This document shows positions 2,598-56,877 of a DNA stretch of 64,000 nt, one piece after another (the first letter of the stretch is position 1; each line of letters begins with the position of its first letter). Made by a program: the position numbers and the translations under genes. Origin of the DNA: Geosiphon pyriformis uo1. Lineage: Eukaryota; Fungi; Glomeromycota. The notes below the pieces were generated by a model that saw nothing but the letters and a program-made list of their open reading frames with translations, did no database searches and had not been told where the DNA came from. Location: NCBI GenBank assembly GCA_016748015.1, contig JAAOMT010000597.1, positions 186,001 through 250,000 on the forward strand. The letters are read 5' to 3'.

Positions 2598-3115
2598 ATG
2601 ATTATTCCTCAAAATATTCAACAAATATCCCAAAAATTAATATTAGCCTTGAAAACACTTCCTGACTTATCCATAATAATTAATGAAAATTAAATTAATT
2701 ACATTCAGAAAAAAACCACAGCCCTAATAGTAAATAATTCTCAGAATTATCACTCTTATAGAAAAAAAACAAGAGATTATTCTAAAATTCAATTACCAGA
2801 ACTTTTGAAGCAAGCACTAAAAAAAAACCTTTTATTTGCCCCTATTGACATTCCACCAAATGCCACAATTCAACAAAAACTTCTACTATTTCTTAATAAA
2901 CAGAACAATAAACATACTCTTATCTATAAATATTTTCATATTGGAAAAACACTTTATGAACAAAAACTGGAACTTGAAGCAACACACATCACTCTTGAAG
3001 CTATTTAAAAACAAATTCACAATGAATTCAAGGCAGCAGCTGGACCAACAAACACTTACTACAAACTTAGAGCAGCATTTAGACTCCATGATTTATTCTA
3101 CACTTGTGAAAACGT
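2598..3115 (+). pseudogene. Element A ORF3, 5' part (continues at 13156-13345)
   Basis: MIIPQNIQQI...YKYFHIGKTLYEQK, homologous to intact ORF 37640-38347. Confidence 0.85.
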
Positions 3116-3188
3116 TGTTACTCATAGAAAAAAAAAACAGATATAAAAAAATAGTAGACCAATAGAAAAGTAGTAGTTAGCACATAAG

Positions 3189-3380
3189 CACATTGCTCAG
3201 CAATGTGGAGCAATATTAGAAAGTATGGCATATTGCTTAGCAATGTGGAGCAATATTAGAAATCACAGCATATGGCTCAGCAATGTAGAGCAATGTCAAA
3301 AAAATACGGCACATTGCTTAGCAATATAAGCATTGTTTGAAAAATTATAGCACATCACTTGGGAATGTGAGCAATTTCAT
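3189..3380 (+). repeat. U3 tandem array: about five ~40-bp units built on the palindrome CACATTGCT-C-AGCAATGTG
   Basis: Seen in all four B-family LTRs just upstream of the TATA-like box. Confidence 0.85.
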
Positions 3381-3395
3381 AAAACCCAAATTATG

Positions 3396-3485
3396 TATAT
3401 ATAGCAGTAGTATTAGAAGTAGAAAAAACAGACCTCTCAGTTTAGATTTGATCTAAGCAACCTGCTATTTACAAATATCAATAAA
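3396..3485 (+). promoter_or_regulatory. LTR TATA-like box (TATATATA, ~3396) and polyadenylation signal AATAAA (~3480)
   Basis: Same order and spacing in B, D and I LTRs; function inferred. Confidence 0.6.
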
Positions 3486-3997
3486 TAATTATTCACCATC
3501 TCAATCTACTCTCCACTATCAACACTTTATGTTGATAGTAAGTTATACTTAACCACATGAGAACAATAGTTCTTGATCACAGCTATTGACAGGATACTAA
3601 CTTGCAATTGCTTTTATTTATTTTTTTATTTTTTTATTTTATTTCTTTTGTTTTGTTATTTTGTTGGTTTTACTAAACTGATTAAAGATTAAGCACTGAG
3701 TTATTAATATCAAGAATAGTCTGGTAAAAGACCCCAAAGGAAGGATATAGGAATTGAGAATTTAAAGATAGCTTACTAGAAGGGCATCTCTGCCAAGATT
3801 ACTGGCCACCATGCTGAGAAAAAAATTCGATGGAATTGCAATTCTGGGAGACTACAGAAAAGACAACACTTAAATCTCTGTCTATTATACAAAAGACACT
3901 ACAACAAAACTTTCAGATATTGACACCAGAATACCAACCCAGCACCAAGTTACAGATTTGTTATTTGACTTGAGATTCCAAATAATCATCTGTAACA

Positions 3998-4016
3998 TTT
4001 AGTGCTCCCTGTGAGG
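3998..4016 (+). other. Primer-binding site; family consensus TGGTGCTCCCTGTGAGG (here TAGTGCT...)
   Basis: Starts 2 nt after the LTR. Complementary to a tRNA 3' end ...CCUCACAGGGAGCACCA, resembling elongator tRNA-Met or tRNA-Ile(UAU); identity not verified. Equivalent sites at ~16781, ~20834, ~56884, ~61941. Confidence 0.75.
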
Positions 4017-4060
4017 TATAATCCTACAGAGAACCAGCACCAACTACACTTATTCCAAAA

Positions 4061-7000
4061 GTGGCAGAATCAGAAAGTATAGGAGCAAACCATTTAAGAT
4101 TTGCAAAATCTTTATTTCAACACTACTGTCAACACTTAGGATTAAACCAAAATCATATATCAACGGAATCAGCCTTCAATTTTTATGTCAACAAGAAAAT
4201 TGCATATTTGTTAAGAACACCAGTAAACATTGAATCAGCAAGAGAAACTTTTTACCACAAATTAATCCAAAACACCAGCCTACCAACAAATTATAATTTT
4301 GCATCCATCATTACTAAGATTAATAAAGAAATTGAACATCACACACAACAAAGATACCCAATCACTTATGCTAATAAAGGCAAAGGAAAATTACAAACAC
4401 CAGCAGTGACATCAAAACAAATACAACCACCCACTTGAAAGAAAACCAAAGTTAAATTACCAACAAATTCATCATACCACTATATACCTGAAAGTATTAT
4501 CAGCATCACATCAACAGGCACATCCACATCACATGTAACATTAATCTTTAGATGATTTCCATTTCAGAGTAAACAAAAGAAAGAAGATCTTCTAAGACCA
4601 TACAGTATGTATTTTGAAGAATTTAAGTCCCAATTACCAACACCATCAAGACTTCAATCTCTACCACCCCAACTAGATTTTGGAACTGTGAGTTCCTGGA
4701 AAGTAATGGAATTGAAGAAAGAACAAGAAGAAGAGGAAGAAGAATCTGAAAATCAAGAATTTACTTACCAGAACCCGATCCCAGAAAACCCAAACATTAA
4801 AACCCTGAATTTCCAGACTCAGCAAAATCTAAATTTAGAAAATCCGGAAATTGAAACTCCAAATTTTCAAACACAGCCAAATCAGAACAACCAAAACTCT
4901 GACTTAATTAATCAATAAAACTTACCTCCTGGAATCATTATTAATTAGCCACTAGCTGAACCCATATGACAGCCACTCCAACAACTGCTTTAATAAATTT
5001 ATCAGCCACTGGTACCACAACAATAACAACAAATAGCATATGTACCAATTGCAAAGCTCAATAAATTTACTGGCGAAGAAGACAATGCCCAAGTCTGGCT
5101 GAATGATGTAGCTAAAGCAATTACAGCCAATAACTGGGATGATGCTAGAGCCATGCAAGCAATTTTCTACTTTTTTTAGGACACTGCCGATGCATGATAT
5201 TAAAGCCTTGTCATCAAACCCCAAAATTTTAACGAATTCAAAACCGAATTCTTGAGGTACTTTAGTAACAATAATAGCATCAACAAATTAGCCAACACCT
5301 TCACCACAATCAAACAAGGGAAAACTGAAGCAGTTATAACTTATTTGGAACAGTTCCACAGGAACCTATGCCAAATTCAAGCAATCCAAGCTGACTATTT
5401 TACAGTGCCACAAATTCTAAACCAGTTCATCTGTGGATTGCACAATAGCATCCTCCAACATGTATGTCCAATACACCCACAAACTCTCCAGAATGCAGTT
5501 ACCAATGCACAAGATTTTGAAGCAACTGAACTAGAAGCCAATTATGCTCAAGCTGTAAACCTGGTCATGAATAGATCATCTGAATTGGATTCCAAATTGA
5601 AACAATTCAGTGATTCAATTAATCAGAAATTAGAAGAATACTTAGCTAACAATCACACAATATATCAACCATCACAATGACACAATAATTTGGGAAACAC
5701 GGATTATTTCCAGAATTAGTTATGTTTAATATCCTCGACCAATCAACAGTGGCAGCAGGAAATGCATATTTGCCACTATTGTAGTAAACAAAGACATTTG
5801 CAATTTGAATGTCGAAAAAAGATAAGCAACCAGAGATCAGTTAATCAGTATCAAAACTCTGATCACCAACTACAAACTCAGAATTACATCAGTAATCAAT
5901 CAAACCCAGCTCTATATCAACAAGATTACCTACCTATGATACAGCCAATATATTAAACACCAATAACACAACAATTATACTCACTTTTAGTTTATCAGCC
6001 TCTAGCAGCAATTTATTAACCACAGTTCCAACCCAATTATCAGCTGTAGTCTCAGGTAAATTATCCACCCCAACAATATCAAACACTACCATAGAACTTA
6101 CCTCAAAACAGAACTCAAAGACCGAGCTTAACACAGCAAAGCTGGAGATTGTTGATGATAATTCATCAACTGATTTCCAGTTTTACAGCACAACTATTAG
6201 GATCTTAACCATGGAATTCAGACACTGGGTATGCCCAAAACCCGAATTTTTAGAACTATTTAAGTCTCCTGGTTATCCCAAAAGACACCCCACCCAATAA
6301 TCTGAAAACCAACCAAAAACAATCACTCACCAACAACATACCTCCAGCCACCGTCACCAACAATGAATCACTAGCAGTGATCTTTCCATTTGAACTTGAA
6401 GAAACTATACCAGTCTCATTATTCAGTAGAGCTGCTCTTAACACCAAACCAATCACTGCTATGTACACTGATGCCAAAGTCGATAACCACTCCATCAAAC
6501 TAATCCTAGATAGTAGATCAGCTGGCAGCATTATTACAAAGCAACTCATGAACCAATTAGGTTACCAAGTTGATCACACTGCCAGCACCAGAATCATAAC
6601 CACCAATAAAGCAACCAAAACTTCCATTGGTGAGATTAATGACTTTCCTATAGAAGTCAACAACATCATTGTACTAATCAAAGTATTAGTCATGAAAGCC
6701 ACCCAATACCAAGCACTTGTTGGTAATAATTGGCTATCTAAAACCAATGCATTGCTTGATTGGAATACACAGAAGCTTCAAATCAGCCAGAATAGATGAC
6801 ACACACATGTATCAGCCACGTGTGGCCACTTTACAACCACCAACACAACAGCACAACTCATAGAGTTCGAAGAAGAAAAAGAAAAACCTACCTGGAAAGC
6901 TTATCAAGTGTCCTAGGCCAGCAAAAAACACAACAAACTGCTGCCAGTATCTTTGTGGGACAACAATAACAGAAAAGGAAAGAAAAGAGAAGAACTTACC

Positions 7001-10329: not shown

Positions 10330-11560
10330 ATGAATATACAAAAATACCAACAACTACAACATTATATAAAGATTTAATTGTTCAAGGAGAAATTATCTCA
10401 AAAAGAACAAAAAGACATAAAACAACAATCCAAATATTTTATTAACCATTAAAATATACTTTATTGGAAAAACAAGAAAAATTCAGATCAACCAATCAGA
10501 GTAATCACAGAATCAAAGAAAGAGACAATATTATTCAATATGCATTTAGACCCAACAGCAGGGCATTTTCACAAAGAAGCAACCATGGAAAGAACCAGAA
10601 AAAGATACTATTGGCCATTAATGTATTTAGACATCATCCAATACGTGCAAAATTGTAATGCTTGTTAGAGAAGAGAAAAAGCAAGACCAAGTGAATCATT
10701 AAGACCAATTAAAGTAGAACAACCATTTGATCACATTGGAATTGACTTAGTTAGACCATTAACAATCACCAGCAGAGACAACAGATATATTGCAGTAGCC
10801 ATGGACTATCTCACCAAATGGCCAAAAGCAAAAGCCATTCAAAGAGCAGATGCAGAATCTGTTGCCAAATTTGTTCATCAAGATTTGATTTGTTGACATA
10901 GATGTCCAAAAAAACTATTATCAGATCAANNNNNNNNNNNNNNNNNNNNNNNNNNNNNNNNNNNNNNNNNNNNNNNNNNNNNNNNNNNNNNNNNNNNNNN
11001 NNNNNNNNNNNNNNNNNNNNNNNNNNNNNNNNNNNNNNNNNNNNNNNNNNNNNNNNNNNNNNNNNNNNNNNNNNNNNNNNNNNNNNNNNNNNNNNNNNNN
11101 NNNNNNNNNNNNNNAAACATTGTTGAAAAGAACATATGACTTAATGAAAACACTAAAAAACAGACAACAAAAAGCAGCTGACAACATACAAAAGTCACAA
11201 GAGAAACAAAAAGAGAGACACAATAACCAACTATCAGACAAACCAGTTGAATTCAAGATTAGAGACAAAGTACTTCTACATCATACTAAAGTGAAAAAAC
11301 AATGGAATGAAAAATTTGACCCCAAATGCAATGGACCATTTCACATTGAAGAAATTTTTGGAAATAGAGCTTACAAATTAAGATGGGACAATAAAATCTT
11401 AGCCAAAGCAGCACATGGTAATCAACTGAAACAATATTACTAGATAGTATTATCATCTACCAATAATATTCTACAACTAGAAGTACAAAGAATACTAGTT
11501 CAACCAGATGAGATTCCACAAGATCTGGAACCAATCATAGTTATTGAACCAAACACATAA
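10330..11560 (+). pseudogene. B1 integrase, separate ORF (contains an assembly gap)
   Basis: ATG at 10330 (MNIQKYQQL), HHCC region, IGIDLV, NGPFHI. Confidence 0.9.
10930..11114. other. Assembly gap of 185 N
   Basis: Run of N; the homologous B2 interval 27771-28102 is about 332 bp. Confidence 0.99.
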
Positions 11561-11619
11561 AATCAAACAATCAGAGAGTATATAAAGACACAGTATACAC
11601 AACAAAAGCAATCAAGAAA

Positions 11620-12255
11620 ATAGAAATACCAGATTATATTCACACTATAGCTCAACAATTGTTTTAGGTCTTAAGTCAACAATAGTTAGACATGAAAATT
11701 ATCATTAACAACCAAACAATTTGCTATTGAAACACTAAAAGAAAGACAAAAAACACACCATATTAGCAGATACCAAAGAATGATAAAAACTGGTCAGATA
11801 ACATAATAGAAAAAGTAAAGAACACATTTGGGAAAATACCTATTATAGCACCAACAGAAGAACTTACAAAAGAGAATTGGAAACAATGGACAGAACAACT
11901 TCTAATATCATATTGTTACTACCAGTTAGGTCGGAAGTTGAATATTCAGGAGTTGTATATCGACAAATCCAAAAAAATATTCAACCAAGACATAATACAG
12001 CAAATTAAAGAATTTATTAGAAAGAAAATAAATTCAACACTACATGTTAGAACAATATACTGACTACACAACATATTTTGAAACTATCCAGAAATACTAT
12101 TACACTCTGACATGGAAACCATAACCATTAACCAATGGGAAAGAATGAACAATACACAAGTGGAAGATATGAGAAACAGAGTCAAACAAACAATACTTGA
12201 AAAGGAAGTATTAGAATTAATTCAAAACAAAGATTTCGACAGAGCTCAATATTAA
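11620..12255 (+). pseudogene. B1 ORF3 (~211 codons), decayed
   Basis: YCYYQLGRKLNIQ...DFDRAQY*, homologous to 50305-50973. Confidence 0.85.
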
Positions 12256-12269
12256 AAAAAAAGAGATAA

Positions 12270-13151
12270 TATTACTTATAGAAAAGAAAAACAGATATAG
12301 GAAAATAGTAGACCAATAGGAAAGTAGTAGTTAGTATGTGAGCATATTGCTCAGCAATGTGGAGCAATGTCAGAAAGTATGGCACATTGCTTAGCAATGT
12401 GGAGCAATGTCAAAAATCACAGCATATTGCTCAGCAATATGGAGTGATGTCAAGAAAATATGGCATATTGCTCAGCAATGTGAGCATTGCTTGAAAAATT
12501 ATAGCACATCACTTGGGAATGTGAGCAATTTCGTAAAACCCAAATTATGTATATATAGTGATAGCATTAGAAGTAGAAAGGACAGACCTCTTAGTTTAGA
12601 TTTAATCTAAGCAACTTTCTATTTACAAATATCAATAAATAATTATTTACTATCTCAATCCACTCTCCACTATCAACACTTTATGTTAATAGTAAGTGAT
12701 ACTTAACCACACGAGAACAATAGCTCTTGATTATGGCTATTGATGGGAAACTAACTTGCAATTGCTTTCATTTATTTTTTTATTTTTTTATTTTATTTCT
12801 TTTGTTTTGTCATTTTGTTGATTTTACTAAACTAATTAAAAATTAAGCACTGAGTTATTAATGTCAAGAATAGCCTGGTAAAAGACTCCAAAGGAAGAAT
12901 ATAGGAATTGAGAATTTAAGGATAGCTTACCAGAAGGGCATCTCTGCCAAGATTACTGGCCACCATGCTGAGAAAAAAATTCGATGAAATTGCAATTCCA
13001 GGAGGCTATGGGAAAGACAACACTTAAATCTCTGTTTATTATACAAAGAACATCACAACAAAACCTTCAGATATTGACACCAGAATACCAATCTAGCACC
13101 AAGTTACGGATTTGTTATTTGACTTGAGACCCCAAATAATTATTTGTAACA
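12270..13151 (+). repeat. B1 3' LTR
   Basis: Follows a purine tract; ends TGTAACA, then ATGT. Confidence 0.95.
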
Positions 13152-13155
13152 ATGT

Positions 13156-13345
13156 CTTACAAAACCCAATACTCCATCCAATAAAGATTCAATATATTGA
13201 AAAGCTCACAGAACTGAAATTTCAACAATTTTCAGACCAGATCACTTCAATTATCTTGGACTATTATTTTAACATTACAGATAGTACTTGGACTTCGATA
13301 GAACTTAGTCTTGAGAAGAAGATTATATTACTAGTAGAATTTTAG
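13156..13345 (+). pseudogene. Element A ORF3, 3' part (reads into the LTR)
   Basis: LQNPILHP...ELSLEKKIILLVEF* matches the G ORF3 C-terminus. Confidence 0.85.
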
Positions 13346-14308
13346 CTATTAATTAGCATGAAATTACTTTTATAATTTCTATTATTAATTAGCATATACT
13401 ATTATTATTTTCAATATTACTCTTATTTAAATCAAATTATCAAATATTATTACTCAATCAATAATCTAATTTGTACCATAAAAATTAAGATGATCAAATT
13501 ACACAATACTCTGAATTATTTAATATAGTCAAAATTTGCCAAAATTAATAAAAATTGGCCGAAATAATCAATAGTTCAGTAAAATAACTTGTAGTTTGCT
13601 GAAATGTATTTTTAGTTCACCCAAATTATAGCAAAAAAAAAAGAGCAAATTTAAAAACTAGTATTACAACAAATTGTATAAAAAAAGAGCTTTTCTCTTC
13701 AAAAAAATGTATTTTCTTATAGTATTTTCTTATAGTATCTTACCAATGCATTTTACTTTAGATATTTTAATTGAAACAAATCATCTTTTACACATTCAAA
13801 TAAAAATTAAATATTTAAAAACCAAATCCTTAAATTATTACACTTGAAATTCTCTCAACACAACTAACATTTTGAAATTGATTAGCTACCAATTTCAATA
13901 AACTGTTAGTAACTCCAGGTCTGGATAAAAAACGTTTTCCTTGTTAGAATTCTATTTTTTTTACATTTTTTTTATTTTTTTTTATTTTTTGTATCATAAT
14001 TATTAGGATAGCCTACAGACAAGATTCCTGTAGAAGAGTTAACTTTTACAGCAAAGTAACTACACATTTTAGTGAGCTTTCAAACAAGCAATTCCTGAGA
14101 AAAAATTGATGTTTACTACAATGTAACTACAGAAAGTAACTGGCATAGAATTGGTTATTTCACTTAAAAATCCAGCAGTTCAAATTATAGGAGATAATTT
14201 GAAGATAAATTCAGTTACTGGAGGTCCAACTACTTCCTAAAAACGTGAATTCACAGCAAATTAACATTAACAACATTCAAGAAAAGAGACCAAAAATCTC
14301 TGGGAACA
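13326..14308 (+). repeat. Element A 3' LTR
   Basis: Reverse-complement homologue of G LTRs; followed by ATGG. Confidence 0.9.
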
Positions 14309-15895: not shown

Positions 15896-16778
15896 TATTA
15901 CTTATAGAATATAGAAAGTATATTAGCATAAATTAACCAATCAGAAGTAGTCATAGTAGATGTGGAATTTCAGGATTTCTTTTAAGAGGAATTGCAGGAT
16001 TTCAGGAATTTTAGGATTCTCATACAAGGAATCACAGAATTCCAGAATTTCAAGATTTCTTCAAAGAGATTATAAAATTACAGAAATTTCAGGATTTTTG
16101 GTGTAAAAAATTGAGGAATTGAGGAATCTCAATTATGTATATATAGTGATAGCATTAGAAGAAAAAAAGACAAGACCGCATCGACAAGGCAAAATTAGAA
16201 GTAAACTTTTCAGTTTAGATTTAATAAAAACAATCTTTTTATTTACAAAAATTAATAAATAACTATTCATTATATCAAATTCACTTTTCACTATTGACTC
16301 TTCATGTTGATAGTAATTGATACTTAATCATACTGAAACAATAGCTCTTGATCATAGCTATTGACAGAATACTAATTTTTTATTGTCTTGGCTTATTTTT
16401 TTATTTTTTTTTATTTTTTTTGGTTATTTTTTTTTGTTGTTTACTAAGTAAAGTTAAAAGAGTAAAGTGCTAAATTATTGACATCAAGGATAGCTTGATA
16501 AAAGACCCCAAAGGAATGGTATAGAATTGATAATTTATAAATAGCTTACCAGAAGGGCATCTCTGTCAAATTACTGGCCACTACACTGAGAAAAAAATTT
16601 GACAGAATTGCAATTCCAGAAGGTTACTAAAACATTATTGAATCTTTGTTCATTATACAAAAAACTTAACCAAAATCTTCAGACAACCAAAACCTTCAGA
16701 ACGACATCAGTATATCAATTGAACACCAAGTTATGGGTTTGTTATTTGATTTGAGACCCCAAATAATCACTTGTAACA
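15896..16778 (+). repeat. D 5' LTR with GGAATTCCAGGATTCC-type U3 repeats
   Basis: TATTA (decayed TGTTA)...TGTAACA, then TTTGGTGCT PBS. Confidence 0.92.
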
Positions 16779-16840
16779 TTTGGTGCTTTCTGTGAAGTAT
16801 AATCTTACAGAGAACCAGCACCAACAACAATCATCCAAAA

Positions 16841-19800: not shown

Positions 19801-19971
19801 AGCTTGGATTACATTTAATAAAGACTATTGGACAAGAACTCACTATTATTGCAAGCCATGCCATAGAGAATGCTATGGCTATCCAAAAAAATAAGAAAAG
19901 TGGGACAATGAACTATGTCTCACTTGTAGTGAACAGTTACTCAACAAAAAAATGTGGAATGACATTTCTAG
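16841..19971 (+). pseudogene. gag-pol: D ORF1 part 1: Gag, protease, start of Cys-rich domain
   Basis: Homology to B Gag; CYYCGKQGHLQFEC; LILNSGSTGS. Confidence 0.88.
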
Positions 19972-20831
19972 TGTTACTCATAGAAAAGGAAAACAGATAT
20001 AGAAAAATAGTAGACCAATAGGAGAGTAGTAGTTAGCATGTGAGCACATTGCTCAGCAATGTGGAGCAATGTCAGAAAGTATGGCACATTGTTCAGCAAT
20101 GTGGAGCAATGTTAGAAATTATGGCACATCATTCAGCAATATAGAGCAATGTCAAGAAAATATGGCATATTGCTCAGCAATGTGAGCATTGCTTGAGAAA
20201 TTATAACACATTGCTTGGAAATGTGAGCAATTTTGTAGAACCCAAATTATGTATATATAGTGATAGCATTAGAAGTAGAAAGGACAGACCTCTCAGTTTA
20301 GATTTGATCTAAGCAACCTTCCATTTACAAAAATCAATAAATAATTATTCACCATTTCAATCTACTCTCCACTATCAACACTTCAACCACATAAGAACAA
20401 TAGCTCTTAATTATAGCTATTGACAGGATACTAACTTGCAATTGCTTTCATTTATTTCTTTATTTTTTTCTTTTATTTCTTTTGTTTTGTCATTTTGTTG
20501 GTTTTACTAAACTGATTAAAAATTAAGTGCTGAGTTATTGATGTCAAAGATAGTCTGGTAAAAGACCCCAAAGGAAGGGTATAGAAATTGAGAATTTAAG
20601 AATAGCTTACCAGAAGGGCATCTCTGCCAAGATTATTGGCCACCATGTTAAGAAAAAAATTTGACAGAATTGCAATTCCAGGAGGCTACAGAAAAGACAA
20701 TACTTGAATCTCTGTCTATTATACAAAGGACACCACAACAAAACTTTCAGATATTGACACCAGAATACCAACCCAGCACCAAGTTACAGATTTGTTATTT
20801 GACTTGAGATTCCAAATAATCATCTGTAACA
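19972..20831 (+). repeat. B2 5' LTR (about 22 bp shorter than the other B LTRs)
   Basis: TGTTA...GTAACA. Confidence 0.95.
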
Positions 20832-28547: not shown

Positions 28548-28606
28548 AATCAAACAATCAGAGAGTATATAAAGACACAGTATACACAACAAAAGCAATC
28601 AAGAAA

Positions 28607-29242
28607 ATAGAAATACCAGATTATATTCACACTATAGCTCAACAATTGTTTTAGGTCTTAAGTCAACAATAGTTAGACATGGAAATTATCATTAACAACC
28701 AAACAATTTGCTATCGAAACACTAAAAGAAAGACAAAAAACACACCATATTAGCAGATATCAAAGAATGATAAAAACTGGTCAGATAACATAATAGAAAA
28801 AGTAAAAAACACATTTGGGAAAATACCTATTATAGCACCAACAAAAGAACTTACAAAAGAGAATTGAAAGCAATGGACAGGACAACTTTTAATATCATAT
28901 TGTTACTACCAGTTAGGTCGGAAGTTGAATATTCAGGAGTTGTATATCAACAAATCCAAAAAAATATTCAACCAAGACATAATACAGCAAATTAAAGAAT
29001 TTATCGGAAAGAAAATAAATTCAATACTACATGTTAGAACAATGTATTGACTACACAACATATTTTGAAACTATTCAGAAATACTGTTATACTCTGACAT
29101 AGAAACCATAACCATTAACCAATGGGGAAGAATGAACAATACACAAGTGGAAAATGTGAGAAACAGAGTCAAACAAACAATACTTGAAAAAGAAGTATTA
29201 GAATTAATTCAAAACAAAAATTTCGACAGAGCTCAATATTAA
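28607..29242 (+). pseudogene. B2 ORF3, decayed
   Basis: Near-identical to B1 ORF3. Confidence 0.85.
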
Positions 29243-29256
29243 AAAGAAGAAAATAA

Positions 29257-30138
29257 TGTTACTTATAGAAAAGAAAAACAGATATAGGAAAATAGTAGAC
29301 CAATAGGAGAGTAGTAGTTAGCATGTGAACACATTGCTCAGCAATGTGGAGCAATGTCAAAAAATATGGCACATTGCTTAGCAATGTGGAGCAATGTCAA
29401 AAATCACAGCATATTGCTCAGCAATATGGAGCGATGTCAAGAAAATATGGCATATTGCTCAGCAATGTGAACATTACTTAAAAAATTATAGCACATCACT
29501 TGGGAATGTGAGCAATTTCGTAAAACCCAAATTATGTATATATAGTGATAGCATTAGAAGTAGAAAGAACAGACCTCTTAGTTTAGATTTAATCTAAGCA
29601 ATCTTTTATTCACAAATATTAATAAATAATTATTTACTATCTCAATCCACTTTCTACTATCAACACTTTATGTTAATAGTAAGTGATACTTAACCACACG
29701 AGAACAATAGCTCTTGATCATGGCTATTGACAGGAAACTAACTTGCAATTGCTTTCATTTATTTCTTTATTTTTTTCTTTTATTTCTTTTGTTTTGTCAT
29801 TTTGTTGGTTTTACTAAACTGATTAAAAATTAAGCACTGAGTTATTAATATCAAGGATAGCCTGGTAAAAGACTCCAAAGGAAGAGTATAGGAATTGAGA
29901 ATTTAAAGATAGCTTACCAGAAGAACATCTCTGCCAAGATTACTGGCCATTATGCTGAGAAAAAAATTCAACAGAATTGTGATTCTGGGAGGCTATGGAA
30001 AAGACAACACTTGAATTTTTGTCTATTATACAAAGGGCACCACAACAAAACCTTCAGATATCAACACCAGAATACCAACTCAGCACCAAGTTACAGATTT
30101 GTTATTTGACTTGAGACCCCAAATAATCATCTGTAACA
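29257..30138 (+). repeat. B2 3' LTR
   Basis: Purine tract, TGTTA...GTAACA, then CTGG. Confidence 0.95.
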
Positions 30139-30391: not shown

Positions 30392-31409
30392 TATTACAGA
30401 TAAACTTGGTTGGATAGGGAAATGGTAATGTTTGGTGCTCTCAAGTATTGGTAATACATGTTTTATGTAATTTTAGTAGCTTAATCTTGATTATTAGTTT
30501 CTGAAGGTCTTATTTTACTGGTTGTGAATTTATCTATTGAGTTCTTTGGTTATAAAACACAGAGTTTTGGTTCTTGTTAATTACAACTTCTTATAAAAGT
30601 GAGCTTTTTTTTCTGAGCTAATGAATGCAGTCATTAGGATCTGGTGTTGTCTTTTTGTCCTTCTGATTAGCTATTAAGATAATATTAATATTCAAAAACC
30701 TAGGGAAAGCTTCTTTCTTTTACTAGGCTATCACAAAGTCTATTCTCAGACAGTCAATTTTATTATGTTGCTGCTCCACAAGAAAAAAAATAAAGAAAAA
30801 AAAATAAAAGAAAAGCTAAATTAGTATTGTTAATTGTTATAATCAAGAAAAATTGGTCCAAATCATTAATAGTTTGAAACAATTATGCTAAAAACATCTG
30901 TTTTAAAACAAAGGTATAAAACAATAATTAATTTATGTAAATTTACAAAATTTGAGAACATGAATTTGTAATTCTGATTTCTTAATAATTGATTTATTTC
31001 AGAAAATAAATATAGAATATAATAAATAATAAAGGGATATAGATATTTGATTCTTGTTTAGTAATTTGTATTTATTTGTCTGTTTGTTTCTATTTTCTAC
31101 AACTACTTGTTTTTATACATTTTTTTGGTTTTACAAGATTGCTTCTGATTGTTTTATTATTGCTAACTATTGCTTTGCTATTTTTGTTATTGCTTTGTTC
31201 TTTTACATTATTATTAGTTATCCTATGTTATAACATGTTATCTAGTGTTATTCTGTGTTATTTTGTGTTATCCCACATTGTAATGCATTATTCTGCATTA
31301 TTCTAAGTTATAATGTATTATCCAATGTTATTGCACACTATTCTGTATTATGTTATATTCTGGTTATGTTTCTTTATAACTTCAGATCGGTTTTTCTACT
31401 CAAGTAACA
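30392..31409 (-). mobile_element. Solo LTR E (distinct family, minus strand)
   Basis: T(G>A)TTAC...GTAACA termini, perfect ATGC TSD, no internal domain. The minus strand shows a U3 repeat, U-tract and U5 motif. Confidence 0.88.
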
Positions 31410-32236: not shown

Positions 32237-33111
32237 TGTTATGGTTTAAGAATTTAACAAAAAAATCATAAAAATAATATAAACTATTCAATCATAATAT
32301 AGTGCAGTAATAATCTTAGAAAGATAATAATTAACATAGTAGCAAACACCATTTTGTGATAATGACAAGCACCAGTTCACAATAGCAGTCAACACCAACT
32401 GGTAATAACAACAAACACCAAGTTGAAATATCAAAAAGAAAGTATTACAATGTGTTTTCTCATAGAACTACAAACATGTATATATACAGTAGCTTTAATA
32501 TTGAGAAAAAAAAAATCAAGTAATAAAAATCATAACTTATCAAGCATTAGATTCAATTTATCTAACAAACTTCACTTTAAATTGTACCTTTAAATTAAAT
32601 ATTTCAAGAAACCTTTAAATCAAAAAGAAATGAAAAAAAATATTTAAAACTGAATTATCACAACCCCAAAGTAGTAAAAAACTCATTTGTGTTAATTATT
32701 GAATGAAACTATCATTCATCAGTTGAATTCCTTGGAAAAATAATCCCTGATCAGGATTATTTATGTTGTTACTAATTGATAAAAGCTTTATTGTGAGAAT
32801 TAGGAAAAATGCTAAAGGCCATTAACATTCTGTGTTTCTAGATTAGAGAAACACATCAGGCAATTGCAAGGATAGCCTCAGAGAAAACTCCAGACAGTGG
32901 ATAGATTTCAGATTAGTCTCTGAGAAAGAGTACATAAACACACACAACAATCAAAAATTGAGAAATAACTTACATCGTAATATTAAAGAGAAAGCCTTTA
33001 GTATACCAGTGACATTATTACACAAATAGAATTAAGGAACTCATGAGAGACTGATTGCAATTAAAACAGAATATTGGCAATTAAATATACCAAGAAAACC
33101 ATTTCATAACA
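32237..33111 (+). repeat. F 5' LTR
   Basis: Direct repeat of 50987-51859. Confidence 0.95.
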
Positions 33112-36670: not shown

Positions 36671-37659
36671 TATTACTGGAGGTTTTTGGTCTCTTTTTTT
36701 GAATGTTGTAACTGTTTGTTGGTTGCAAATTCATGTTTTCTAGAAGTAATTGAACCTCCAATAACTGAATTTATCTTCAAATTATCTCTTATAATTTGAA
36801 CTGCTGGGCTTATAAGTAGAATGGCCAATTCTGTGCCAGTTACTTTGTATAGTTACATTGTAGTAAATGCCAACTCTTTTCCAGGAATTGCTTATCTGGA
36901 AGCTTACTAAAATGTGTAGTTACTTTGCTGTGAAAATCAACCCTTCTACAGAAATTTCATCTGTAGGCTACCCTAATGATTACAATAAGAAAATAAAAGA
37001 AAATAAAAGAAATATAAAAGAAATTGAATTCTGTTAAGGGAAACGTTTTCTATTCAGGCCTGGAGTCACTAACAGTTTACTGAAATTGGTAGTTAATCAA
37101 TTTCAAAACGTTAGTTGGGTTTTGGGGATTTTCCAAGTGCAATAATTAAAAAATTTGGTTTTTCAAATTATTTGATATTTATTTTTTTTTGTGTGTGTAG
37201 GAATGGTTCTAGTGATAAATCTAAAGTAAGATACATTTTCTTAAAGAAAAAAGCTCTTCTTTTATATAACTTGTTATAGTACTAGTCTATGAACTTGCAC
37301 TTTTTCTCTTTGCTTAACTTTTGGCAAACTAAAGATACATTTTGATGAACTACAAGTTATTTTGCTAAACTATTAATTAATTTGGGTAAACTATTCATAA
37401 TTTTGGCAAATTTCTATAAATTTTGGCAAATTTCTTATAAATTTCAGTGAATTTTAGAATGTTACAAAGTTCAAAGTATTGTGTAATTTTATCATCTTAC
37501 TTTTTGTTATACTAATTGGATTATTTAATTGAATCATGATATGTGATAATTGATTAAATAATAAATGATAATTTGAAATGATATTAATATACTAATTAAT
37601 TATAGGAATTATAAGGGTAATTTTCCTGCTAATTAATAGCTAAAATTCTACTAGTAACA
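36671..37659 (-). repeat. G 3' LTR
   Basis: Repeat of 45595-46571. Confidence 0.95.
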
Positions 37660-38347
37660 TAATCTCCTCTTCAAGACTGAGCTCCATCAAAGTCCAAGCA
37701 CTATCTGTGATATTGAGATAGTGATCCAAAATAATTGAAGTAATCTGGTCTGAAAATTGTTGAAATTTCAGTTCTGTAAATTTGCCAATATATTGGACTT
37801 TCATTGGTTGCAGTATTGGATTTTGTAGAACATTTTCACAAGTATTAAACAAATCATAAAGTCTAAAAGCTGCTCTAAGTTTGTAATGAGTGTTTGTTGA
37901 TCCAGCTGCTGTTTTAAATTCATTGTGAATTTGTTTTTGTATAGCTTCAGGAGTAAGATTTGTTGCTTTAAGTTCCAGTTTTTGTTCATAAAGTGTCTTT
38001 CCAATGTGAAAGTATTTATAGATAGGGGTGTGTTCATTGTCTTGTTTATTGAGAAGTAGTAGAAGTTTTTGTTGCATTATAGCATTTGGTGAAATGTCAA
38101 TAGGAGCAATTAAAAAATTTTTTTTCAGTGCTTGCTTCAAAAGTCTTGGTAACATATTTTCAGAATGACTTCTTGTTTTTTTTCTATAAGGGTGATAATT
38201 TTGTGGATGATTTACTACTGGGACTGTGGCTTTTTTCTGAATGTAATTAATTTGACTTTCATTAATTATTATGGATAAGTTAGGAAGTGTTTTCAAGACT
38301 AACATTAACTTTTGAAATATTTGTTGAATATTTCGGAGAATAATCAT
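37640..38347 (-). CDS. G ORF3, uninterrupted 235 aa, unknown function (env position)
   Basis: Open frame with ATG; homologues in A, B, C, D and F. Confidence 0.8.
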   Translation of the reverse strand: MIILRNIQQIFQKLMLVLKTLPNLSIIINESQINYIQKKATVPVVNHPQNYHPYRKKTRSHSENMLPRLLKQALKKNFLIAPIDISPNAIMQQKLLLLLNKQDNEHTPIYKYFHIGKTLYEQKLELKATNLTPEAIQKQIHNEFKTAAGSTNTHYKLRAAFRLYDLFNTCENVLQNPILQPMKVQYIGKFTELKFQQFSDQITSIILDHYLNITDSAWTLMELSLEEEIMLLVEF

Positions 38348-38468
38348 GGTAAAATTGACTAATTATGAAAAGGAAGAATAAAAAAAATTATTTTTAGGTA
38401 TGGGGTTTTATTTTGTAATTATTTACTATTTTTGTCTTTGTGTTTTTATTAAAGAATTATTGTAAAAT

Positions 38469-45594: not shown

Positions 45595-46571
45595 TGTTAC
45601 CAGAGGTTTTTGGTCTCTTTTCTTGAATGTTGTAACTGTCTGTTGGTTGCAAATTCACATTTTCTAGAAGTAGTTGAACCTCTAATAACTGAATTTATCT
45701 TCAAATTATCTCTTATAATTTGAACTGCTGGGCTTATAAGTGGAATGGTCAATTCATGCCAGTTACTTTGTATAGTTACATTGTAGTAAATGCCAACTCT
45801 TTTTCAGGAATTGCTCGTCTGGAAGCTCACTAAAATGTGTAGTTACTTTGCTGTGAAAGTCAACTCTTCTACAGAAATCTTGTCTATAGGCTACTCTAAT
45901 AATTACAGTAAGAAAATAAAAGAAAATAAAAGAAAATAAAAGAAATGTAAAAAAAATTGAATTCTGTCAAGAGAAACGTTTTCTATCCAGGCCTGGAGTC
46001 ACTAACAATTTACTGAAATTGGTAGCTAATCAATTTCAAAATGTTAGTTGGGTTTTGGGGATTTTCCAAGTGCAATAATTAAAAAATTTGGTTTTTCAAA
46101 TTATTTGATATTTATTTCTTTTTGTGTGTGTAGGAATGGTTCTAGTGATAAATCTAAAGTAAGATACATTTTCTTAAAGAGAAAAGCTCTTTTTTTATAT
46201 AACTTGTTGTAGTACTAGTCTATGAACTTGCACTTTTTCTCTTTGCTCAACTTTCGACAAACTAAAGATACATTTTGATGAACTACAAGTTATTTCACTG
46301 AACTATTAATTAATTTGGGTGAACTATTCATAATTTTGGCAAATTTCTATAAATTTCAGTGAATTTTAGAATGTTACAAAGTTCAGAGTATTGTGTAATT
46401 TGATCATCCTACTTTCTGTTATATTAATTGGATTATTTAATTGAATTGTAATATGTAATAATTGATTAAATAATAAATGATAATTTGAAATGATATTAAT
46501 ATACTAATTAATTATAGAAATTATAAGGGTAATTTTCCTGCTAATTAATAGCTAAAATTCTACTGGTAACA
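45595..46571 (-). repeat. G 5' LTR
   Basis: Adjacent to the PBS at ~45577-45594. Confidence 0.95.
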
Positions 46572-48839: not shown

Positions 48840-50215
48840 ATGAACAATCACCTTTACAAAAACCTCAGCCAATACTTAGAAACACTACAAATAGACAAAA
48901 AAATGCCAGTAAAAGAGCTAATTAAGCTCCAAAAATTAGCAAAACACTATTTCATCCAAAATCACATACTTTATTACTGGAATTAACAAAATCCAGATAA
49001 TCTATTAAGAGTTATAACCACAGATAAAAAAGAAACTATCTTATTTAACATGCACTCAGATATTCATTTAGGCCACTTTGAAAAAACAGCAACTATCTAG
49101 CGTGCAACTAACTATTACTATTGGCCAAAAATGAGTTCAGACATAATCCAATACATAAGAAATTGTGACTTATGCCAATGAAAAGAAGGAGCAAAAACAA
49201 TGGAATTATTAAGACCAATAAAAGTTGGACAGCCATTTGACAGAATTGAAATTGATTTAGTTGGATCTTTACCAATAACAACAAAAAACAACCATTATAT
49301 TGCAGTAGCTGTAGACTATCTTACCAAATGGCCAGAAGCTAGAGCTATTAAAACAGCTAATGCTATTTCTGTAGCTCAATTGGTACATGAAGACTTAATT
49401 TGCTGACATGGATGTCCACAAAAATTGCTATCAGATCAAGGCACACACTTCATAAACAGCACCTTAAAAAAACTTAGCCAAAAATTTGGAATCAAGCGAC
49501 CATTGTCATCACCATACCACCCACAAACAAATGGATTAGTTGAAAAATTTAATCACATATTATGCAAATTACTAGTGAAAATTAGTAATAAACATGAAAA
49601 AGAATGGGATTTGTTCATACCAGCAGTACTACTAACATATAGAACAGTAAAACAAGATACTATACAATTCACACCATTTGAACTAGTTTATGGAAGAAAA
49701 GCCACATTATTAGTTAAACTTACTATTTCAACTTATCTAAGTGACACTATCACTGAAACAACATTCCAGGAAACACTACTTAGAAGAACATATGAATTAA
49801 TAGAAACTTTAAAAAACAAAAAAAAAGCAGCACAAATATTGAACAATCACAAAAACAACAAAAAGTGAGACATGATAATCAGTTACCAGATAATATAATT
49901 AGCTACAAAATTGGAGATAAAGTATTGTTGCATTGTACAAAAATGGAAAAACAATGGAGTGAAAAATTTGATTACAAGTGGGATGGACCATTTTATATTT
50001 ACAAAATACTTAGAAATAAAGCATATAAGCTAAGACTAGATGATAAAATATTAAGAAAAGCAGCACATGGTAACCAGCTAAAATTCTATTACAGTAAACC
50101 AGTAATAACAACAAAAACACCCAGAATTGGAACACAATTACCTTTAATTCTACCAGAACAAATTCCATGAAATTTAGAACCAATAGTTTTAATTGAATAT
50201 TATTCAAAAAGATAA
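48840..50215 (+). pseudogene. F integrase, separate ORF
   Basis: ATG at 48840; GHF, CDLC, IDLVG, SDQGTHF, YHPQTNGLVE, WDGPF. Confidence 0.92.
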
Positions 50216-50304
50216 TTAATTTTAGATCACAGCAAAAAAAAAATGATTTAACAACCATAAAAACGCATGCAAAAGATTCCAAAATAGCAGTCAAAATTAA
50301 AACA

Positions 50305-50973
50305 ATGATACTTATTCCAAAAAACATCAACAATATAGCTCAACAATTAGTTGAAACCTTACAACAATTAAAATCCGATCCGGAAATCACAGTTAATAGC
50401 TCCAAAATAACATACATAAAAAGAACAATAAAAAATCCAAAAACAAGAAAAGAACATAATTTTGAACCATATAATATTACCAAACATAACAACAAATTTA
50501 TCAGCAAAGTTATTGAAAAATTAGAGATAACATTGGGCAATACATTAATAATGAAAGAAATAGAAATAAGTGAATTAACACCAGACACATTTAGCAACTT
50601 GAAAACAAAATTTCCAATTAACTACTGTTATTATCAACTAGGAAAGCACTTGAACATACAAACATTATACTTAAAAGACTCAATTAAAATGTTTGACAAA
50701 ACAACAATCCAACTATTAGAACCTTTCATTGGAAAAACCAACATTACATTTCATTCAAAAACAGTTTACAGAATTTTTAAAGGATTTGAAAACTGTCACA
50801 AACTATTGTTGGACCCAACCATGAACATAATAACAATCAACAGTATTGGACGACTTACCAACTCACAATTTCAAGAATTACAACAACAAATTAATAACAC
50901 AGTATTGGACTACTATAGTAACTTAGAATTTAATGAAAAAATTAACTTTGATTTCGACAGAGCTCAATCTTGA
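50305..50973 (+). CDS. F ORF3, uninterrupted 222 aa, unknown function
   Basis: Open frame with ATG; stop overlaps the PPT. Confidence 0.8.
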   Translation: MILIPKNINNIAQQLVETLQQLKSDPEITVNSSKITYIKRTIKNPKTRKEHNFEPYNITKHNNKFISKVIEKLEITLGNTLIMKEIEISELTPDTFSNLKTKFPINYCYYQLGKHLNIQTLYLKDSIKMFDKTTIQLLEPFIGKTNITFHSKTVYRIFKGFENCHKLLLDPTMNIITINSIGRLTNSQFQELQQQINNTVLDYYSNLEFNEKINFDFDRAQS

Positions 50974-50986
50974 AAGAAGGGGATAA

Positions 50987-51859
50987 TGTTATGATTTAAG
51001 AATTTAGCAAAAGAATCATAAAAATAATATAAACTATTCAATCATAATATAGTGCAGTAATAATCTTAGAAAGATAATAATTAACATAGTAGCAAACACC
51101 ATCTTGTAATAGTGGCAAGCACCAGTTCATAATAGCAGACAACACCAACTGGTAATAGCAGCAAACACCAAGTTGAAATATCAAAAAGAAAGTATTACAA
51201 TGTGTTTTCTCATAGAACTACAAATATGTATATATACAGTAGCTTTAATATTAAGAAAAAAAAATCAAGTAATAAAAATCATAACTTATCAAGCAATAAA
51301 TCTAATTTATCCAACAAACTCCACTTTAAATTGTACCTTTAAATTAAATATCTCAAGAAACCTTTAAATCAAAAAGAAATGAAAAAAAATATTTAAACTG
51401 AATTATCACAACCCCAAAGTAGTAAGAAACTCACTTGTATTAATTATTGAATGAAACTATCATTCATCAGTTGAATTTCTTGGAAAAATAATCCCTAATC
51501 AAAATTATTTATGTTGTTACTAATTGATAAAAGCTTTATTGTAAGAATTAGGAAAAGCGCTAAAGGCCATTAACATTCCATGTTTCTAGATTAGAGAAAC
51601 ACATCAGGCAATTGCAAGAATAGTCTCAAAGAAGACCCCAGACAGCAGGTAAATTTCAGATTAGCCTCTGAAAAGGAATACATAAACACACACAACAATC
51701 AGGAATTGAGAAATAACTTACATTGTGACATTAAAGAGAAAGCCTTTAGTATACCAGTGACATTATTATACAAATAGAATTGAGAAATTCATGAGAGACT
51801 GATTGCAATTAAAACAGAATATCAGCAATTAAATATACCAAGAAAACCATCCTGTAACA
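50987..51859 (+). repeat. F 3' LTR
   Basis: TGTTA...GTAACA after the PPT. Confidence 0.95.
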
Positions 51860-53723: not shown

Positions 53724-55107
53724 ATGAATATACAAAAATATTAACAACTTTAACACTATATTAATACTCAGCAGTTCAAGAAAAAATTATTTCCAAAGGA
53801 ATGAAGCCATATCAAACAACAATCCAAATACTTTATTACTTACCAAAATATATTTTATTAAAAAAACAGAAAGAATTCAGATTAACCAACCCGAGTAATC
53901 ACAGAACCAGAAAAAAAAACAATATTAATCAACATGCATTCAGATCCAACAGCAGGACATTTTTACAAAGAAGCAACCATAGAAAGAACCAAAAAAAGAT
54001 ATTTTTGGCCATCAATGTATCTAAACATTATCTAATATGTTCAAAATTGTGATACTTGTCAGAAAAGAGGAGGAACAAAACCCAGTAAACCATTGAGACT
54101 AATAAAAGTAGAACAATCATTCAATTATATTGGAATCAACTTAGTCAAACCACTAATAATTACTAGCAGAAACAACAGATATATTACAGTAGCCATGAAC
54201 TATCTTACTAAATAGCCAGAAGCAAAAGCCATTCAAAGAGCAAATGCAGAATTCATTGTTGAATTTGTTCATTAAGATTTGATCTGTTGACATGGATGTC
54301 CAAAAGAACTATTATTAGACCAAGAAACTTACTTTGTAAATAGAACATTGACAGAATTAAAATCAAAGATTTGAGATAAAAAAACCATTATCATTACCAT
54401 ACTATCCACAAACAAATGAGTTAGTTGAAAGGTTTAACAGAACATTGTGTAAAGCAATTGCCAAAATCAGCCAAGAAAACCAAAACAAATAAGATTTGTT
54501 CATATCATCAGTATTATTTGCATATTAGACAATGAAGCAAAACACTATACAAGCAACACTATTTGAATTAGTATATGGTAGAACAGCAACACTACCAGTT
54601 AAGATAGAAGTCAAAACATATCCAACAGAACCAATAACAAAAGAAAATTTTCAAAAAACATTGTTAAAAAGAACATATGACTTAATAGAAACATTAGAAA
54701 ACAAATAGCAAAAAACAGCTAATAACATCCAAAAATCACAAAAAAAACAAAAAAAAAGACATGATAACCAACTACAAGATAAACCAATTGAATTTAAGAT
54801 TGAAGACAAAGTACTTCTACATCATACTAAAGCAGAAAAACAATGGAGTGGAAAATTTGATTCCAAATAGGATGAACTATTTCACATAGAAAAAATTCTT
54901 GGAAATAGAACTTATAAATTAAAGTTAAACAACAAAATTTTAACCAAAGCAACACATAGAGATTGACTGAAACTATATCAAAATATAGTATCAGCATTCA
55001 CCAATAATATTTTACAACTGAAAGCACAGAGAATACTAGTTCAATTAGATGAGATTTTATAAGATCTAAAACCAATCATAATCATTAAACCAAACATGTT
55101 AAATTGA
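53724..55107 (+). pseudogene. D integrase, separate ORF (3' end approximate)
   Basis: ATG at 53724; colinear with B2 integrase. Confidence 0.87.
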
Positions 55108-55163
55108 ACAACCAAAGGAGTATATAAAGACACAGTATACATGACAAAGACAACAAAAAGAAA

Positions 55164-55793
55164 ATGGAAATTACCAACAACATACACACACTGGTACAAC
55201 AATTTTTTCAACTGATTCAATAACAGAATATGAAAATTACTATCAACCAACAAACTATTCAATATTGAGATACCAAGAAAATATGCCAATACAAAGTACA
55301 GAAGAAACCAGAAAGCACTGTCAACAAAATAATTCTAAAAGTAAAAATGACAATAAAAAAACCAACAAATATCACTCTATATCAAGAAGTAACTAAAGAA
55401 ACTTGGAAGTAGTGAATACAACAATTTTCAAGGAACTTTTGTTATTTTTACTTGAGACAATATCTAAATATCTGAAACTTATATATGGATAAGACAAAAC
55501 AATTATTTAATCCAAAGATACTACAATAATTTGAACAATTTGTGCGAAAAAACAATCTAACCACACAAGTATGAGCCATATATTGATTACAAATTGGATT
55601 TCAGGACCAACCCGAAATCTTATTCAATCCAGCAATCAACTCCATTACTGTTAACCAAATGAGAAAAATAATTAATGCCTAATTTGAAGAATTACAGAAC
55701 AAGATAACACAAGTAATTCTTGAAAAAAAAGTTCAAAAAATACTCAAAGACAGAGAATTAGAATTAGGAGATCTCAACAGAGCTCAATATTAA
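55164..55793 (+). pseudogene. D ORF3, decayed and divergent from B ORF3
   Basis: MEITNNIHTLVQQ...FCYFYL..YLNI...RAQY*. Confidence 0.78.
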
Positions 55794-55806
55794 AAGGAGA
55801 AAAAAA

Positions 55807-56197
55807 TGTTACTTATAAAATATAGAAAGTATATTAGCATAAATTAGCCAATTAGAAATAGCTATAGTAGATATGAAATTCTAGGATTCCTCTCAAAAGG
55901 AATTACAAGATTCTAGGAATTTCAGGATTCTTATACAAAGAATTACAGAATTCCAGAATTCCAAGATTCTTCTTAAAGAGATTGTAGAATTTCAGAAATT
56001 CTAGGATTCCTGGTGTAAAGAATTAAGAAATTGAGAAATCTCAATTATGTATATATAACAGTAGCATTAGAAGAAAAAAAGACAGATTTTTTAGTTTAGA
56101 TTTAATAAAAACAATCTTCCTATTTACAAAAATCAATAAATAACTATTCACTATATTAAATCCACTTTTCACTATTGACTCTTCATGTTGATAATAA
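55807..56197 (+). repeat. D 3' LTR, 5' portion (interrupted by H)
   Basis: Matches 15896-~16315. Confidence 0.9.
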
Positions 56198-56877
56198 TGT
56201 TATGGTTGAAACCCATAATTTTTATTAGTTATCACATGTATTAGCCACTGATGTTACATAAATAGCCACTCTATTTTAGATAGTGATCATTGACCTGATT
56301 ATTGACTTGATTATTGATCTGATTATTGACCTAGTCATTGACCTGGTCATTGACCACTTTCAATAGCTATATAAACAATGAGTCTCTTAGCTGTAGAGAA
56401 TCATCTTTTAGACAAGAATCAAATAAATAAAAATAACAACTTTCATCTCAATCACTCTCTTATTGCTAATTTCCCTTTCCCTACTTTCAAGTATCCAAAC
56501 ATCTTAGGATAAAAGATTACTTGTTGGCCTTTTCCTGTTTGAATAATTGTAGTATTTGAAGACTATTTGTATAAACATGACTGAAAAGCACAAGTTGATA
56601 TCTGATATTGAATTCTAAGAGCACCAACATGAAGGCATAGAATTAATACCAACAGTGATCAATTGTTGACAGTACAGACTATCCCTCTACCTTCAAATTC
56701 CCTTGTTACTTTTTGAAAAGAATAGTGATTGAGATATTTTATGAAACTGATCTTGCACATTGAATCCATACTTATTCAATTCGCTCTTTAAAGTTGAATT
56801 CACCTTTAATTATTTCTATCACCCTACAATCCTGTTCTCTCTTGCTATCCATTAGCTTGTTACTCCAACCTGTAACA
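56198..56877 (+). repeat. H 5' LTR with 12-bp tandem repeats (ATTGACCTGATT-like, ~56285-56356)
   Basis: TGTTA...TGTAACA, TATATAA, AATAAA, followed by a PBS; partner LTR not in window. Confidence 0.85.

Follow-up and report, generated by a model that had tools for sequence, protein, structure and literature searches.

A structured U5 element, possibly a packaging-type signal, in the Ty3/Gypsy retrotransposons of Geosiphon pyriformis

What does a short structured motif do in the LTRs of retrotransposon families whose LTRs cannot otherwise be aligned? This question was raised by a 64-kb stretch of Geosiphon pyriformis DNA, analyzed here at its full length and called the window. The window is a nest of decayed Ty3/Gypsy LTR retrotransposons, with ORFs for Gag, protease, dUTPase, RT, and integrase domains arranged in Ty3/Gypsy order; one ORF matches a G. 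pyriformis protein at 100% identity. The hallmarks of this group were found, namely, LTRs of the form TG..CA with target duplication, a PBS, and the order Gag-PR-RT-IN; dUTPase was located between protease and RT in elements B, F, and G. An account of Geosiphon puts LTR sequence at 41.2% of the genome (PMC11952901). The contigs of run X1 pointed to a family of very high copy number in which most mutations are C>T and G>A. The landmarks of the 5' LTR of element B1 and the LTR of a comparator, element H, are as follows:

3116..3997, plus strand: 5' LTR of B1 (TGT...ACA, 882 nt)
3394-3403, plus strand: TATA box of this LTR
3480-3485, plus strand: AATAAA of this LTR, with the R/U5 boundary presumably just downstream
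56198-56877, plus strand: LTR of H, without the motif

A run of 185 N (10930-11114) is present within B1. In LTR I, about five tandem copies of a 16-nt unit are found in U5 (61755-61845), and the length of this LTR is thereby 959 nt.

The motif was found in 12 copies in the window. All 10 sites cited in a preliminary description of this DNA carry it, and two further copies lie at 20546 (B) and 51616 (F). The motif had been assigned to five LTR types; since B, D, and I can be aligned with each other and form one LTR family, the number of independent families is four (B/D/I, F, A/G, and E). The absence of the motif from H, also reported previously, was confirmed, and the H LTR lacks the shared 8-mer described below as well. 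The copies, with the parts of the first one, are as follows:

3712..3825, plus strand: copy B1, whole
3712-3721, plus strand: B1, 5' word
3722-3727/3773-3778, plus strand: B1, main stem
3731-3746, plus strand: B1, inner hairpin
3779-3783, plus strand: B1, GAAGG
3803-3816, plus strand: B1, small hairpin
3814-3825, plus strand: B1, CTGAG and A-run
12866..12979, plus strand: copy B2 (3' LTR)
20546..20659, plus strand: copy B3
29853..29966, plus strand: copy B4 (3' LTR)
From 16486, plus strand: copy in element D, inside a predicted intron
From 61559, plus strand: copy in element I, inside a predicted intron
From 32868, plus strand: copy in element F, inside a predicted intron
51616..51714, plus strand: copy F2 (3' LTR)
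14004..14103, plus strand: copy A1, short form with a 7-nt loop
36876..36975, minus strand: copy G1, short form
45799..45898, minus strand: copy G2 (5' LTR)
30392-31409, minus strand: solo LTR E, with the motif from 30735 and an imperfect stem
3595..3675, plus strand: branch-point-like TACTAAC (3595-3601) and U-rich tract of B1

The 5' word had been given as AAGGATAGCC. This exact form is present in only 2 of the 12 copies (29853 and 32868); at 3712, the word reads AAGAATAGTC. The decay was of the kind assumed earlier: C>T and G>A dominated in 7,528 run X1 contigs aligned to one copy, and the majority letters restored the earlier reading. A long U-rich tract precedes the motif in most families, as described, but not in F, where the best 40 nt hold 20 T, compared to 31 to 35 elsewhere. 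The U5 placement is deduced from the TATA box and AATAAA of B1, not from RNA.

Short ORFs were noticed downstream of the motif. A start-stop AUG-UAA follows 117 nt after the motif start in all three A/G copies (14121-14126, plus strand; 36853-36858 and 45776-45781, minus strand), and near it a GTAACTAC-like word is repeated three times. In F, a three-codon ORF is found 175 nt after the motif start (33043-33054, plus strand).

In the 6-bp main stem, 64 of the 72 positions in the 12 copies were Watson-Crick pairs, 3 were G-U, 4 were restorable by undoing decay, and 1 was a true mismatch, in E. The C-C/G-G pairs flanking the stem were paired or decay-restorable in 24 of 24 cells. The proposed compensatory changes were evident from three independent stem sequences (B/D/I, F, and A/G) but did not extend to E, which has the mismatch and only three of six Watson-Crick pairs. 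The inner ACCC/GGGT hairpin was conserved in sequence but showed no covariation. RNAalifold recovered the main stem unaided and also a single small hairpin ahead of the A-run; in each of the two, pairs had changed on both sides. In a hand-drawn structure of 25 pairs, 85.3% of the cells were paired, compared to 78.0% in shuffles (0 of 500 as good), and pairs changed on both sides numbered 10, compared to 7.7 in shuffles (83 of 500 as good); this structure was drawn from the same sequences on which it was tested, and only its main stem and small hairpin were supported by RNAalifold. From local composition, the chance of five pairs beyond the fixed U-A was about 0.002 per family. When unrelated DNA with matching flanking words was searched, a stem of at least 5 bp was found in 0 of 86 cases and at least four pairs beyond the fixed U-A in 1 of 57 and 0 of 39 cases. 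The exact word GGRTAGCC occurs five times in the window, compared to 0.58 expected, and one occurrence (19877-19884) has no stem. Single copies folded no better than shuffles (z of -1.8 to +1.3), as expected after decay, and the same was true of the least-decayed versions (z of -1.0 to +1.5). The words, the covarying stem, and the shared 8-mer support the earlier claim of a conserved structured RNA element, located in U5 within a leader of about 600 nt.

We considered whether the U-rich tract and motif, past the poly(A) site in the 3' LTR, could be a 3'-end signal for cleavage or termination, or whether the motif could be a protein-binding DNA element. U-rich downstream elements are established for polyadenylation, and AATAAA precedes the motif by about 230 nt in both LTRs. 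This distance is long for a downstream element, however, and the compensatory stem changes and the tolerance of G-U pairs point to RNA structure; we regard either role as improbable. A self-cleaving ribozyme of a new class, one of the functions offered previously, is more improbable still. Invariant junction bases combined with variable stems have the look of ribozyme cores, and other retroelements carry ribozymes (PMC3185411). However, a cut within the 5' U5 would leave R and the PBS on separate molecules and would block strand transfer, and the covariance models of Rfam 15 lent the idea no support: they gave no match at an E value of ≤1 for the window and chance matches only for two copies scanned alone, with a sensitivity lowered by the decay of the copies.

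Alignment scores between the LTRs of B/D/I, F, A/G, and E were at or near the shuffle level. One GC-rich 8-mer, GATAGCCT, is common to all four of these unalignable families and absent from H; in 200 shuffles, the mean number of shared GC-rich 8-mers was 0.01 and the maximum was 1. The RTs of the motif-bearing families are 42 to 50% identical and about equally distant from that of H. Similarity between the LTRs of different families is normally lost altogether; the retention of the motif among lineages with RTs only 42 to 50% identical therefore marks a function under strong selection. A covariance model (R1) recovered its nine training copies; beyond these, A1 scored best but weakly (18.2 bits; E value of 0.16), G1 reached 10.1 bits, and G2 was absent from the list. 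In view of these weak or absent scores, the membership of A/G rests on the words and the stem, not on R1.

Pattern scans of IMG/VR for the motif gave chance matches only. One of these, in contig L167 (~1465-1530), has paired repeats, in a layout that we take to recall a hammerhead ribozyme. A metagenome scan with the long-form pattern yielded 43 loci and 39 distinct matches, none with the stem and none with a retroelement ORF. No motif copy outside Geosiphon was found in the IMG/VR and metagenome scans, nor did a protein scan with the RT of H reveal homologs elsewhere. In searches of mainly open-access literature, no paper came up that describes the motif or a PBS-spanning U5 intron.

Upstream of the motif, a short AUG exon followed by a splice donor was predicted in three families (B/D/I, F, and E). 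The predicted exons, donors, and acceptors are as follows:

3529..3543, plus strand: B1, predicted 3-codon AUG exon (3529-3537) and donor GTAAGT (3538)
Ending at 4029, plus strand: B1, predicted acceptor TATAAT..CTACAG, just past the PBS
16304-16312, plus strand: D, AUG exon, with a predicted 498-nt intron (16313-16810) holding motif and PBS; join in the Gag frame
61358-61366, plus strand: I, AUG exon, with a predicted 604-nt intron (to 61970) holding motif and PBS; join in the Gag frame
32763-32792, plus strand: F, 10-codon AUG exon, with a predicted 389-nt intron (to 33181) holding motif and PBS; AAG acceptor, join in the Gag frame
30961-30941, minus strand: E (solo LTR), 5-codon AUG exon and donor GTAAAT, in a stretch (30608..30961) that also holds the motif

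In B/D/I, AUG and two codons are followed by GTAAGT or GTAATT, and in F, AUG and nine codons are followed by GTRAGA. A donor with a phase-0 AUG within 12 codons was the best-scoring or tied-best one in B/D/I, F, and E, at a shuffle rate of 0.11 to 0.17 each, with a score that was composed after the sites had been seen; by the same score, A/G and H had no such AUG-exon donor. Downstream of the PBS, a branch-like word and a YAG are present in B, D, and I, and gene model P0134, itself a prediction, makes the same D/I join. In B1 and B3, the best donor and the first acceptor are out of frame by one extra base, which is absent from some genomic copies; B joins in frame only with weaker donor/acceptor pairs. 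The B3 LTR has lost the AUG exon and donor through a 22-nt deletion, and no AUG exon joining to Gag was found in G. On sequence grounds, an intron that runs from the U5 donor to the post-PBS acceptor and encloses the U-tract, the motif, and the PBS is rather likely. The motif, being located in this predicted intron, would be carried by unspliced genomic RNA only. A point absent from the preliminary description is that the U-tract, motif, and PBS are probably intronic, lying between the AUG exon and Gag.

Two other observations concern this region. Element H was inserted into a D-type 3' LTR, where it sits at the predicted donor, a few bases past the AUG exon (56185-56198). In B, D, and I, a conserved hairpin (3568-3591; AATAGC/GCTATT arms around a near-palindrome) is found between the donor and the branch-like word and is a possible dimerization site.

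The start of Gag was also examined. The relevant features of B1 are as follows:

3998-4016, plus strand: tRNA-type PBS
4055..4408, plus strand: coding sequence of the helical N-terminal Gag domain; the gap to the PBS has no AUG

In each of the six 5' ends that bear the motif (B1, B3, D, I, F, and G), a domain of about 110 residues lies directly past the PBS. It is homologous across families at 22 to 28% identity, shows a third-position bias (transversions of 2/1/6 between B and I and 34/21/56 between G and F), and is predicted to fold as a helical bundle (pLDDT of 76). A structure search gave no clear match (best Z of 6.7; rmsd of 3.8; 102 aligned), a viral structure library gave nothing at an E value of ≤0.001, and the Atlas gave no lead. 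A search with the domain returned 223 matches; among the 150 listed, 10 of 10 looked up were from Geosiphon. The best 120 relatives of the domain were all from G. pyriformis. In the six 5' ends, the first in-frame Met is found only 114 to 254 codons past the LTR, and an in-frame stop is found 4 to 17 codons past it; the stop past the PBS in G is probably due to decay, since gene models read through. Among 247 Geosiphon gene models examined, 98 have a domain anchor, and an internal Met at -9 to +15 was present in none of the 98. The Gag AUG of H is at 56930 (plus strand), 53 nt after the LTR and past the PBS, and its Gag N terminus does not match the domain. Zinc-knuckle-like motifs were present in all seven Gags examined.

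Two other candidates were tried and rejected. The AUG just before the A-run, as a Gag start, is Kozak-like in B but not conserved. As for a coding U5 exon, open frames were uninformative because stops are rare in all frames. A second Met just before the capsid domain (~5150, 21990, 17800, and 34050, plus strand; 44830, minus strand) has been retained by B3, D, F, and G and hints that Gag may also exist in a shorter form.

A likeness to the J-K domain of type II IRESs had also been noted previously. By analogy, the motif could be an IRES-like or translation-enhancer module in which a three-way junction, braced by an A-rich strand, would recruit eIF4G and translation would begin either at a near-cognate codon or far downstream; we consider this unlikely. 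The comparison set consisted of four type II IRES loci, confirmed as RF00210. In their folds, a U-A6 loop is followed by a 5-bp St helix, the lower J helix has 6 bp, and both an AC and a GA bulge are present. The LTR 5' word differs by one inserted base from a word invariant in all four loci. The C-G pairs at the base of J are A-minor receptors for the A-rich loop in J-K (PMC6689051), and, at the level of sequence, the LTR motif likewise has C-G pairs at its junction base, in the 24 of 24 paired or restorable cells mentioned above. It also has a purine bulge on the 3' strand and a downstream A-rich strand. In its minimum-energy fold, G1 forms a three-way junction that closes after an A-rich linker of 7 nt; the centroid structure of G1 lacks it, and the junction is not fixed in other families. 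In B and A/G, about 140 nt beyond the start of the motif, there are ACG codons with CpG decay and a good context.

The model- and feature-based tests went against this likeness. No match to RF00210 was obtained in the Rfam scans. A J-K model (R2) built from two loci scored the two held-out loci at 51 and 49.5 bits and listed none of the 12 motif copies among 20 matches at an E value of ≤10, although R2 rests on two sequences and the copies searched are decayed. The LTR model gave no match to J-K, and a sequence profile matched 0 of 18 targets, the least-decayed versions included. In the type II loci, GGAUG pairs with the strand right after the A-rich loop in four of four, forming the upper St helix. 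The bases that follow the A-run in the LTRs vary from family to family, their pairing with the 5' word is incomplete, and no conserved partner for this word is found past the A-run. The lower helix of the motif has 2 bp instead of 6, and its bulge is GAA instead of GA; the AGGU/AUCU helix and AC bulge are replaced by the variable 6-bp stem, A/G has no inner junction, and GAAGGG itself is variable among the four type II loci. In 24 gene models, the A-run is preceded by a codon for Lys (10), Met (7), Thr (6), or Leu (1), U5 reading frames differ among subfamilies, with in-frame stops at the PBS, and no conserved AUG, such as the start AUG at the 3' border in J-K, was found downstream of the motif. 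What stands of the likeness is one word and the C-C/G-G junction base. The eIF4G-binding domains compared in PMC13018306 are alike in topology rather than sequence; hence, the failed sequence tests reject membership in J-K but not a similar way of working. An IRES-like role, unlikely as it is, would keep its weight mostly if the predicted intron is not real. A slightly less likely version is that the clade has a J-K-like, eIF4G-recruiting junction in its LTR, by convergence or capture from an RNA virus, which would act on unspliced genomic RNA, with Gag made from a PBS-less spliced mRNA starting in the LTR.

Among the functions offered earlier, packaging fits best. We tentatively favor the possibility, which still falls short of being probable, that Gag binds the motif as a packaging-type signal; the motif belongs to the U5 leader of a deep Geosiphon Ty3/Gypsy clade and lies within the predicted PBS-spanning intron. 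The U5 donor would be spliced to the post-PBS acceptor, giving a PBS-less mRNA that would only make Gag and Gag-Pol. Unspliced RNA alone would keep the U-tract, the motif, and the PBS, and the motif would have no Gag AUG to serve downstream of it. As spliced RNA could not be primed, an intron containing the PBS would never be lost by retrotransposition. With Gag coming from the PBS-less mRNA, the genome would have to be chosen in trans, and a specific signal would be needed. Gag may find the genome through the unpaired purine words GRUAG, GAA, and GAGAAA held on the stem, and its genome-binding part may be the zinc knuckle or the basic N-domain. Element H, which has no motif and starts Gag at an AUG past the PBS, is in line with packaging; counting against it, H is a single comparator and by RT is no more distant than the motif families are from each other.

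The invariant bases, found despite Gag N-domains that are only about 25% identical, suggest a conserved host partner rather than Gag. An element bound by a host factor, which would hold back some of the RNA from splicing, export it, or shield it from decay, is rather unlikely but ranks close behind packaging. Here the stem would hold the invariant UAG, which follows the branch-like word and U-tract, as a decoy or regulated 3' splice site; moreover, the short upstream ORF of the unspliced RNA would invite nonsense-mediated decay. All four families have RCTAAY 90 to 155 nt before the motif, and the same stretch of H lacks it, although this word is common in 70% AT DNA. The first YAG after RCTAAY is the TAG of the motif in B/D/I, and gene model P0145, a prediction, takes this TAG as an acceptor, but other YAGs precede it in F, E, and A/G. 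The invariant bases would fit a host factor. An extra ORF after integrase in motif-bearing elements could encode an export factor, as with Cer1 (PMC12786077). It is located as follows:

37661-38362, minus strand: extra ORF of G
50197-50970, plus strand: extra ORF of F
Near 11550-12255, 28560-29240, 55050-55800, and 2600-3115 with 13152-13325: broken copies

This ORF, of about 230 amino acids, is homologous between G and F (26% over 222 amino acids; E value of 2e-18), is recognizable also in A, B, and D, and has its own Met. It had weak Atlas look-alikes among Mucoromycota proteins. Against a role in export, it had no Pfam match at an E value of <0.05, and its predicted fold was unusable (pLDDT of 38). 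In G and A, the ORF is preceded by a U-tract and TAG, resembling a splice acceptor.

Returning to packaging, the motif resembles retroviral packaging signals (RSV mu-Psi/M-Psi, HIV-1 Psi, and foamy virus CAS-I), as outlined in PMC5035971 and PMC7828637, in being a structured 5'-leader element near the PBS, with a zinc knuckle in Gag. Unlike them, it lies in U5, upstream of the PBS, and the predicted intron also removes the PBS and parts the Gag AUG from Gag; RSV Psi is described as present on spliced and unspliced RNAs alike (PMC5035971). BARE is reported to have separate translated and packaged RNA pools (PMC3735527), and introns are noted for the Ogre, EVADE, and Cer1 LTR retrotransposons (PMC12786077). 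These four are similar in that splicing or separate pools divide translation from replication (PMC3735527 and PMC12786077). As described in these two sources, however, none has a U5 donor with an acceptor just past the PBS, and none has a conserved structured motif in such an intron.

The motif so far comes from one species, in dead copies. The choice of genomic RNA is known for few LTR retrotransposons. Should the predicted intron prove real, the RNA of these elements would be divided between an mRNA lacking the PBS and a genome that is not translated, and the motif would offer a compact way into the question of how such an element selects its genomic RNA.
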